Shown one piece after another: positions 2,946 to 59,631 of a DNA stretch of 64,000 nt. Position 1 is the first letter of the stretch, and each line of letters begins with the position of its first letter. The notes under the pieces are model-generated. The model did not search any database, was not told the DNA's origin, and saw only the letters and a program-made list of their open reading frames with translations. The position numbers were made by a program, and so were the translations under genes. This DNA comes from Candidatus Gastranaerophilales bacterium. Its GTDB lineage: Bacteria > Cyanobacteriota > Vampirovibrionia > Gastranaerophilales > Gastranaerophilaceae. The stretch covers positions 90,655 to 154,654 of the forward strand of contig CALUVV010000006.1 of NCBI GenBank assembly GCA_944324305.1, read 5' to 3'.

Positions 2946-2973
2946 GATATGGCGGGTTAAGCGGCTGCGCTTG
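2946..2973 (-). repeat. GC-rich hairpin motif copy (AAGCG-CAGC-CGCTT followed by AACCCGCCATATC) inside the L1 leader
   Basis: Stem 2959-2963 pairs with 2968-2972. About 24 of 30 nt are identical to 59531-59562, and it is similar to 41222-41243. Confidence 0.6.
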
Positions 2974-11672: not shown

Positions 11673-11903
11673 ATGTATTTAATAGAGCTGGTTGTTAAAT
11701 TATTTTCAAGAAAAAAGAAAGTTGAAGAGGTTTCATTTGATCCTTTTGCACAGGATAATCTTGAAACCTCTGAAGATTGTAAACATATCTTTCTGCCTGT
11801 GGACAGCACCGGAGAAATTCTTGCATGTTCAAAATGCGGGCTTGTCGTAAACAAAAAAGATTTAAGAGATATTAATATATTTAAAAGAAACTCTAAAATC
11901 TGA
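11673..11903 (+). CDS. small hypothetical protein, possible Cys-containing ribbon
   Basis: ATG 3 nt after the cdd stop. The CKH...CSKCG spacing is only weak support. Confidence 0.35.
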   Translation: MYLIELVVKLFSRKKKVEEVSFDPFAQDNLETSEDCKHIFLPVDSTGEILACSKCGLVVNKKDLRDINIFKRNSKI

Positions 11904-12522
11904 GAGGATAATCTTTCGGTATTTGCCAGCCCTCATATTGAATAAGTTTAGCGCAAAATGCATGATATTCTTCCGCGCAGCCATATTTGTTACCGTTTTT
12001 TAATAGTTTTTCACGTGTGCCGTCCCAACTATATGTGTATGGTTCAAATGTTGGTTTTACTGTATACTTATTAACGCTTTCTTCCTGCCCTGTTACTAAT
12101 ACGGGATTAAAACGAAATGCAAAATGATTTACTCCGGCTTTCTTATTTAGTAAAGCTTTTTTATTAACATAAAACCCCATATCGTATATGTAATTTGTAA
12201 CTTCAAGTATTCCGCCGTCATTTAAATAAATACGGAAAACATCTTTATCCTTCTCTAAAGATGCTATCTGTAAGTGTTTCCCTATATATGTATTAAACCA
12301 TACTATTGTTTCATCTGTGCTGCAAGTTGAAGAGCCGGATTGCCCACAGTCCATTGCCCATGATTCAACATCTCCGTATTCGGCAACAGAAGCATTAATA
12401 GCCTGGTTCATCACAGAATAAACCTTTTTTAATTTCGTAACAACTTCTTGTTTTTTGTGATTGGCAATTAATGCGGGCATTGTTAAAGAAGCAACAACAC
12501 CGATAATACCGAGAGTAATCAA
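11893..12522 (-). CDS. type IV prepilin-like protein (L3); body ORF lacking its own processing motif
   Basis: The ORF-track TTG start falls inside the ...A|FTLAEV LITLGIIGVVASLTMP helix. The FTLAE codons lie just upstream at 12540-12526. Confidence 0.8.
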   Translation of the reverse strand: MITLGIIGVVASLTMPALIANHKKQEVVTKLKKVYSVMNQAINASVAEYGDVESWAMDCGQSGSSTCSTDETIVWFNTYIGKHLQIASLEKDKDVFRIYLNDGGILEVTNYIYDMGFYVNKKALLNKKAGVNHFAFRFNPVLVTGQEESVNKYTVKPTFEPYTYSWDGTREKLLKNGNKYGCAEEYHAFCAKLIQYEGWQIPKDYPLRF

Positions 12523-12753
12523 TACCTCAGCCAGAGTAAAAGCGGTTGAGCGGCTAAGATGATAAGCGGCTAAGTTAAAATGACGAAAACGACTTAACTT
12601 CTTAGCTGCTTCGTCTCCCGGCTGCTTGTTAACGTGCGTAAAATCTCTGACAGAGCCAGAAAAAGTTTCACGAAAGTCGTGTTGCGGGGCTACGTGCGTA
12701 GCACCTTCAGCTAATGTAAATCCCTTTAACCCCTTCTGCCAAGCGACCTTTGC

Positions 12754-12763
12754 GGGGGGGGGG
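12754..12763 (-). repeat. homopolymer C10 on the coding strand (G10 as given) in the L3 leader; putative phase switch
   Basis: Counted 10 G. ATG 12791-12789 preceded by a GGAGG RBS. Offset to the pilin frame is 269 nt (mod 3 = 2). Confidence 0.65.
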
Positions 12764-12811
12764 CAACCCTTAACGCTTTGAAATTAAACATTTCAACCTC
12801 CTTTTTTTCTT

Positions 12812-12840
12812 ATTATATACTATATGAGGTTAAATTACAA
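12812..12840 (-). promoter_or_regulatory. sigma70-like promoter for the L3 leader (TTGTAA-N17-TATAAT)
   Basis: Read on the minus strand: -35 at 12840-12835, -10 at 12817-12812, about 20 nt upstream of the RBS. Confidence 0.45.
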
Positions 12841-59503: not shown

Positions 59504-59534
59504 ATTTTTTTATTAGATTTATGGAAAGGAGCAG

Positions 59535-59557
59535 CCAGCGTAGCCGCTGGACCCGCC
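59535..59557 (+). repeat. GC-rich hairpin motif copy (CCAGCG-TAGC-CGCTGG-ACCCGCC) upstream of the L9 leader
   Basis: Stem 59535-59540 pairs with 59545-59550. The flanks match the L1 leader motif. It is preceded by a duplicated RBS block (59521-59533 equals 59590-59602). Confidence 0.6.
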
Positions 59558-59631
59558 ATATCTGGTGTTGTATAATTTTATTGAAAATTATGGAAAGGAG
59601 CAATTATGAAAAGATTAAAACTTAAAACGTC

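Follow-up and report, generated by a model that had tools for sequence, protein, structure and literature searches.

The pilin-like gene L3, on the minus strand of a Candidatus Gastranaerophilales genome, raises a simple question: why does a single leader contain two copies of the sequence coding for the prepilin cleavage motif FTLAE, with 165 nt between them? The window, i.e. the whole stretch of 64,000 nucleotides analyzed here, corresponds to G000:C6:90655-154654, where G000 is the source genome. The sequence-only reading had proposed a recombination or insertion scar exactly at the FTLAE-coding sequence, left either by cassette exchange between pilin loci or by a small inserted element. 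Every motif that it listed (two sites coding for FTLAE, palindrome, hairpin, short repeats) is present at the position given. The features of the locus, in window coordinates, are as follows.

12812-12817, minus strand: TATAAT box, read from the sequence
12797-12801, minus strand: GGAGG ribosome-binding site, read from the sequence
12764-12791, minus strand: ATG (12789-12791) and eight further codons; pre-tract leader MFNFKALRVA
12754-12763, minus strand: C10 homopolymer (G10 on the plus strand), with the L3 frame off by one base
12721-12753, minus strand: post-tract leader AKVAWQKGLKG, 33 nt, in the pilin frame
12706-12720, minus strand: FTLAE1, TTTACATTAGCTGAA, the original cleavage-site motif of the leader, now a stub without a hydrophobic helix
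12541-12705, minus strand: segment between FTLAE1 and FTLAE2, 165 nt
12643-12705, minus strand: repeat unit 1, 21 codons
12686-12705, minus strand: head of unit 1, GGTGCTACGCACGTAGCCCC
12689-12702: palindrome GCTACGTGCGTAGC in unit 1
12669-12681: hairpin CACGA-AAG-TCGTG in unit 1
12632-12642, minus strand: second, partial head, TTTACGCACGT, coding for F-T-H-V
12632-12640 and 12692-12700: ACGTGCGTA, two copies in the segment
12573-12631, minus strand: L3-specific segment of ~60 nt, KQPGDEAAKKLSRFRHF, with no copy found elsewhere
12541-12572, minus strand: insert tail with CTTAGCCGC twice as a direct repeat, ending with Ala at -1 (…LSRSTA)
12550-12558 and 12566-12574: GCGGCTAAG, direct repeat in the tail
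12526-12540, minus strand: FTLAE2, TTTACTCTGGCTGAG
11893-12540, minus strand: pilin-like protein of 215 aa (FTLAE2, hydrophobic helix and body), stop TAG at 11893-11895

As assembled, with ten C, the frame from the ATG at 12791 stops at a TAA at 12726-12728. The pilin frame is closed upstream by another TAA (12784-12786), and it contains no ATG, GTG or TTG between 12783 and 12522. Since the run is C10 and the frame stops early, reading the long leader requires 11 C (or 8 or 14); the long open frame claimed earlier thus exists with 11 C, while the gene in the assembly is out of frame. The leader predicted with 11 C has 84 residues, 24 to the first motif and 60 more. Its two motifs are not equivalent. 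FTLAE2 reads ...STA/FTLAEVLITLGIIGVVASLTMP, with Phe at +1, Glu at +5, a hydrophobic helix and Ala rather than the usual Gly at -1, and it is matched by TIGR02532 at 16.9 bits against a cut-off of 16.3. The FTLAE1 stub is followed by GATHVAPQHDFRETF and no hydrophobic helix, and the profile search gave no pilin-domain match for it. The body of the protein is intact, with DUF6613 in its C-terminal part, and the source genome has a gene for a peptidase of the A24 family (G000:C1:103267-103659).

A gene that is one base out of frame might be a decaying one: L3 could be a pseudogene, or the product of a single illegitimate recombination, with a frame that is open by chance. Apart from the C10 run, the central ~60 nt of the segment, which are unique, are consistent with such an origin, as is the 7% of shuffles of this composition in which 55 codons stay open. 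We consider this explanation very improbable, beginning with the fact that the missing base is shared by the family. The source genome (2.2 Mb, 16 contigs) encodes 185 pilin-like N-termini, and in 132 of them the leader contains a run of G or C. For 124 of these 132, the run has exactly 10 bases and one more is needed for the frame; only five are in frame (four with G11, one with G8). As nearly all tract-bearing paralogs are one base short, C10 is the normal state of the family. The TATAAT/GGAGG layout also recurs in about 130 paralogs. Neither the intact body with the domain of its family nor the comparisons with relatives described below are as expected of a pseudogene.

The segment between the two motifs is richer in G+C (48.5%) than its flanks (about 30-39%) and the genome (34-37%), and the pilin frame is the only one open across it, the other five holding 2-5 stops each; the sequence-only reading was correct as to the G+C content and the lack of stops in the pilin frame. 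It had also found the segment full of small structures, and this holds in part. Direct 9-mer repeats exceed chance (three observed against 0.04 expected, P about 0.002), while the number of 5-bp hairpins does not (P 0.22) and the fold of the whole segment is marginal (z = -1.76, with 11 of 200 shuffles folding as well). What does fold stably is a hairpin at the head, which is a 6+6 palindrome. The structures noticed are mostly hallmarks of a repeat family, namely the palindromic head, the second partial head and a hairpin common with the element E described below, and not parts of one folded RNA. The enrichment in G+C, the local hairpins and the stable hairpin at the head could also be taken as signs of a structured 5' regulatory RNA, a riboswitch or an attenuator, with the pilin starting at a non-canonical codon near FTLAE2. 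We give this possibility next to no weight. Besides the marginal fold, Rfam gave no relevant match either for the whole window at gathering thresholds or for the region at permissive ones (E up to 10); no in-frame ATG, GTG or TTG lies between 12783 and 12523; and the segment is open in the pilin frame alone. Throughout the family, moreover, the units are in frame and have Ala or Gly at -1 with a free wobble position.

Comparison with relatives shows where the extra DNA lies. In a different species of the same genus (G002), the gene at the same position, downstream of the S41 peptidase gene, has a ribosome-binding site, an ATG, C10 and AKVAWDKGFNG/FTLAE, followed directly by the helix, with no insert. 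Its single FTLAE-coding site is identical to FTLAE1 of L3 at 14 of 15 nt, and L3 thus carries 180 extra in-frame bases relative to this ortholog. The same is seen within the source genome, where pilin leaders are modular. The L3 leader belongs to a type ("C-type, 33-nt") that is also found in 14 paralogs, and all 14 proceed from ...KG/FTLAE straight into the helix. The closest paralog (G000:C2:196386-196482), which has no insert, shows 93% identity to L3 across the 97 nt up to the first FTLAE. The proposed scar is therefore an insertion exactly after the Glu5 codon, as suggested; it is not a unique event, because the same junction occurs more than 200 times in the genus.

Other relatives differ in what precedes the same body. 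A second ortholog (G022), whose body and 3' synteny are common with L3, has a leader that reads ...RLSSNLKG, FTLAE, one 15-codon (45-nt) unit GATHVVMLNNQRRFG, a second motif and the helix; the RLSSNLKG module comes after the G10 run in paralogs of that genome, and the contig of this ortholog begins inside the leader. Two further genomes (G001 and G004) have the orthologous body joined to still other leaders, a homolog of the body in G021 has a short MVKKYG leader, and most members of the genus have no pilin gene at this site. At the L3 locus the number of units is thus zero (G002), one (G022) or, by the length reading given below, three (L3). Judging by these alignments, leaders before one pilin body are exchanged between species; the quite different leaders of orthologous bodies fit the cassette exchange between pilin loci that had been suggested. 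The presence of zero or one unit at the same point in orthologs also argues against a one-off scar.

At one syntenic site (L009, in G004:C120), the gap between the S41 peptidase and pilin genes contains ~400 extra bases with two small opposite-strand open reading frames resembling a toxin-antitoxin or XRE-type pair; the pilin there has a plain MKRIA leader.

We searched for the junction as the codons for L-A-E followed by GGTGCTACGCACGTAG, using the reversed pattern as a control (0 matches). The junction LAE/GGTGCTACGCACGTAG occurs more than 200 times, in 36 of the 60 genus genomes and up to 22 times per genome, so that other pilin loci do carry a unit at the same position; among the species genomes searched, it was found only in Gastranaerophilales/Melainabacteria records. 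Of 97 distinct junction copies sampled, 95 had an identifiable end. The distance from the head to the real FTLAE with its helix is 15 codons in 82 copies, 35 in ten and 55 in L3; these three classes comprise 93 of the 95, and inserts of 74 and 137 codons (one copy each) show that the 20-codon period is not universal. In all 95 the frame is open up to a regenerated FTLAE preceded by Ala or Gly. The canonical form, with a unit of 45 nt, is A/FTLAE/GATHVAHCDNxRKxA/FTLAEV..., and the module has a 60-nt period consisting of the head GGTGCTACGCACGTAG, a variable tail, Ala or Gly, and a fresh FTLAE. Tandem arrays are present in L032, L037 and L039, the last with up to 4-5 units. At -1 of the regenerated site only Ala and Gly occur, and the third base of their codons is free to vary; together with the constant frame, this constitutes the coding signature of the unit tail. 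The junction, the head, the second head and the length class of L3 match a family in which 95 of 95 copies are open, and this again is not what a chance-open pseudogene would offer.

The unit comes after very different upstream leaders: short standard ones, ones with G10, and ones that consist of other repeats and stay open for 40 to >290 codons. Within genomes unit tails have a mean identity of 80%, against 52% between genomes, and many pairs of units reach 93-100% identity in spite of unrelated gene bodies and upstream flanks; on these identities, copying of the unit appears to be recent or ongoing. The FTLAE-coding 15-mers flanking a unit are identical in 10 of 77 canonical copies, where 1.3 are expected and the maximum in 5000 shuffles was 7. 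Target-site duplications of 15-19 nt would be unusually long.

In other members of the genus (L048, L092, L031 and others) leaders are open for 100 to >290 codons. Their other modules include TTCAC-rich repeats (SRFTLHPSLKK), the hairpin CCCTCCCTAATCAGGGAGGG (PSLIREG) and repeats of the GTCATTGCGAG type.

How far does L3 itself conform to this module? Within the source genome and the 60 genus genomes, only the first 19-27 nt of the segment recur. For the L3-specific ~60 nt, matches in the source genome are at chance level and the 60 genus genomes contain none; an L3-specific 27-mer had no match in JGI metagenomes. As a whole, the 165 nt are not a repeated element. Further along the segment, the partial second head aligns with the second head of two-unit (35-codon) forms (L037, L086, L110 and L112), and the tail resembles a module of TTAGCTGC repeats located before FTLAE in L031 and L033. 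The head of L3 is intact (20 of 20 nt), while the remainder of the insert has diverged beyond recognition. FTLAE1 and FTLAE2 differ at 4 of 15 nt, from which the L3 copy looks old and a target duplication is not demonstrable for it; a simple target-site duplication in L3 was rejected on this ground. The insert has no terminal inverted repeats, the second head being in direct orientation.

Taken together, these comparisons point to a likely explanation, which we favor: the L3 insert is an in-frame repeat module similar to the Rickettsia palindromic elements, a diverged array of about three units, tolerated since the leader is cleaved off. The count of three units is suggested by the 55-codon length, the two heads and the tail module. 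Some observations stand against this explanation. The whole insert, and the central ~60 nt in particular, has no copy anywhere searched; L3 is out of frame in the assembly; no mobilizing enzyme was found, and L3 lacks terminal inverted repeats. In addition, a leader of 84 aa with Ala at -1 departs from the leaders of 6-26 aa with a critical Gly described for type IV pilins (PMC4471445).

The uniformity of the head invites a different interpretation of the same data. When G-A-T-H-V was searched with any codons, the head codons among the 150 matches listed were all GGT GCT and nearly all ACG CAC GTA, while the adjacent Ala and Glu codons vary freely; overall, the wobble positions of the head are invariant across 35 species. 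The head, and with it the insert, might therefore be a working cis-element and not a passenger, i.e. a site at which a recombinase, a regulator or an RNA-binding factor binds or cuts. Expression, leader exchange or slippage of the tracts would be coordinated by this factor throughout the pilin family, with the insert placing L3 under its control. The intact head in an otherwise diverged insert and its sharp left edge, to which many different sequences are joined, are in line with this proposal. We regard it as possible and on the whole doubtful: no partner protein or RNA was identified, no Rfam family matches, and copying, by homogenizing the units, could be sufficient to maintain a uniform head.

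The surroundings of the homopolymer runs bear on the same proposal. In the source genome the same palindrome (CTACGCACGTAG) recurs beside homopolymer runs, 4-5 nt away from G10 and with a single orientation on the G strand; its nine exact and about 28 degenerate copies include compensatory variants such as CTGCG..CGCAG. A serine-invertase crossover site, which two arms around a 2-bp core would fit, was also considered. The single orientation, the spacing of 4-5 nt and the compensatory changes favor a cis-acting role. Overall, however, the palindrome may precede or follow the tract and its distance varies, which speaks against such a role. The palindrome and a hairpin, CACAA-nnn-TTGTG, together form an element of 45 nt, E; in at least 22 further leaders of the source genome, E is directly adjacent to the G10 run. 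On the G strand, positions 12660-12703 in unit 1 of L3 can be aligned with E in 44 columns, of which 34 are identical; none of 300 controls with the palindrome kept and the flank shuffled reached this score. Relative to CACAA/TTGTG in E, the L3 hairpin CACGA/TCGTG carries a compensatory pair of changes. On the strength of this alignment, unit 1 of L3 would also be a copy of element E.

A role as a stimulator of programmed frameshifting was considered and rejected as a general one; the hairpin is 4 nt after C10 in some paralogs, upstream in others and 48 nt away in L3.

The head motif was also found outside pilin genes. A NagZ-like GH3 gene (G000:C2:236154-237167, locus L113) carries in frame the 27-mer GGTGCTACGCACGTAGCCCTGCAACAC, which it has in common with L3 and which consists of the head and about 11 bases after it. 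Ortholog alignment shows a clean in-frame insertion of 18 codons (54 nt) that immediately follows a native GGTGCTACG; five species have it, and at least 13 orthologs, including members of the same genus, do not. The left 9 nt of the 27-mer are native to the gene, and the rest of the insertion is unlike the pilin units, so this insertion could be a microhomology-mediated event and not the same module moving. The head motif has decayed in three of the five carriers; as no cis-acting role would be expected in such a gene, this decay agrees with a role of the head in pilin loci.

Returning to the repeat-module explanation, we considered which enzyme might have moved the unit. The palindrome contains GTAG and TAC-type junctions, and Y1 transposases were tested for this reason. 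Mobilization by IS200/IS605 or RAYT enzymes was rejected: the Y1 domain (PF01797) is absent from the source genome and shows no association with unit count. It is present in 17 of the 60 genus genomes, and units occur in 12 of these 17 and in 24 of the 43 genomes that lack it; the high-copy genomes G022, G061 and G056 have no Y1 transposase. In MEL.A1 (G044, CP017245) the head also occurs without a preceding FTLAE and in inverted orientation, and at one locus (L269, at about 238.6-239.4 kb) a pilin leader contains two inverted heads ~135 nt apart, an arrangement resembling that of a MITE. One end of a multi-copy ~150-nt element at this locus is shared with the head.

We propose the following course of events for L3. 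An in-frame insertion of 180 bases, just behind the Glu5 codon of the original cleavage motif, would have lengthened its leader; the inserted unit may have spread by duplication or short-patch recombination at the FTLAE-coding site. The insert would be translated only in cells with a run of 11 C. By analogy with characterized type IV pilins, the prepilin peptidase would then cut at the second site, which alone has the helix that this enzyme needs (PMC4471445), so that the 84-residue leader, and with it the insert, is probably discarded, leaving a mature protein that the insert would not alter. In this proposal, the insert is tolerated because the whole leader is removed at the second site, and removal of the leader would explain why units pile up in leaders. 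The palindromic head would be kept by some process at the DNA or RNA level.

A literature search found no publication describing such leader repeat units. The closest described parallel is provided by the Rickettsia palindromic elements, which are intragenic, in frame and about 150 bp long (PMC10969869). As with these elements and with intragenic MITE- or REP-like repeats, short repeats lie in frame within protein-coding genes and leave the frame open. Like the Rickettsia elements they are numerous, differ in their presence between orthologs and, for the head motif at the NagZ-like insertion, also occur in an unrelated gene. The palindrome in the head of the units may be a further likeness. 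In contrast to the Rickettsia elements, units in pilin leaders are only 45-63 nt long, are concentrated in pilin-like leaders directly after the cleavage motif, regenerate this motif each time and form tandem arrays with a 60-nt period. Unlike a MITE, the L3 insert has no terminal inverted repeats, and no mobilizing enzyme was identified, the Y1/RAYT type tested being absent from the source genome.

In the type IV pilin class III signal peptides of the systems studied, Gly at -1 is critical and leaders have 6-26 aa (PMC4471445). FTLAE2 resembles them in its small residue at -1, Phe at +1, Glu at +5 and helix, and the A24 gene is present; it differs in having Ala at -1 and a predicted leader of 84 residues, in which there is moreover another copy of the motif, lacking a helix, as well as a putative homopolymer frame switch. 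This C10 run, situated in the region that sets the frame and one base off as in the rest of the family, is reminiscent of slipped-strand phase-variable genes. The likeness concerns the tract and not the insert, which lies 48 nt downstream of it; since the G002 ortholog has the tract without the insert, the insert is not needed for the putative switch. In both genomes the run is C10 in consensus assemblies.

Coding minisatellites, tandem repeats that change in copy number by slippage or unequal exchange, are found in genes for bacterial surface proteins. The pilin units share with them the 60-nt period, orthologs with zero, one or three units and arrays of up to 4-5 (L039), and differ in being located in a leader that is predicted to be discarded and not in the mature protein. 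The same unit is present at dozens of unlinked loci with unrelated flanks, for which local slippage alone is insufficient.

A stronger version of the proposal can be formulated, although we think that it is probably not correct: the unit might be an active, sequence-specific module that targets the codons of the prepilin cleavage site and rebuilds the site at its far end, so that the host peptidase would "excise" it at the protein level, and its conserved head would have a second function, as a cis-acting signal in the recombination, regulation or slippage control of more than 100 switchable pilin genes.

If the repeat-module explanation is correct, the leader peptide that is cut off would be a safe harbor within coding sequence for repeat DNA, with the mature protein left untouched by virtue of a cleavage motif that the repeat itself carries. 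It would explain apparent double processing sites and leaders several times the textbook length in pilin-like genes of gut Gastranaerophilales. In annotation, the motif beside the helix should be taken as the real site. A head conserved as nucleotides, together with the adjoining G10 switches, would also offer a handle on how well over 100 switchable genes for surface fibers are managed.

Some further properties of the homopolymer runs and leaders of the source genome are worth recording. Among 179 G/C runs of at least 8 bases, 169 are exactly 10 long, a uniformity that is odd for free-running slippage; the G002 ortholog of L3 also has C10. Across contigs C1-C15, the G-rich strand of the runs is constant along most contigs (only C runs on C1, C2, C5 and C8; only G runs on C4, C6, C7 and C9) and flips once in C3 (between 122986 and 162873) and once in C10 (between 18757 and 38405), which looks like a tie to the replication strand. 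Finally, two pilin genes (window 59521-59602 and G000:C6:13300-13380) are preceded by a duplicated GAAAGGAGC ribosome-binding block with a short GC-rich stretch (…GCGTAGCCGCTGGA…) between its copies, and a related motif occurs in a leader at window 2946-2973.
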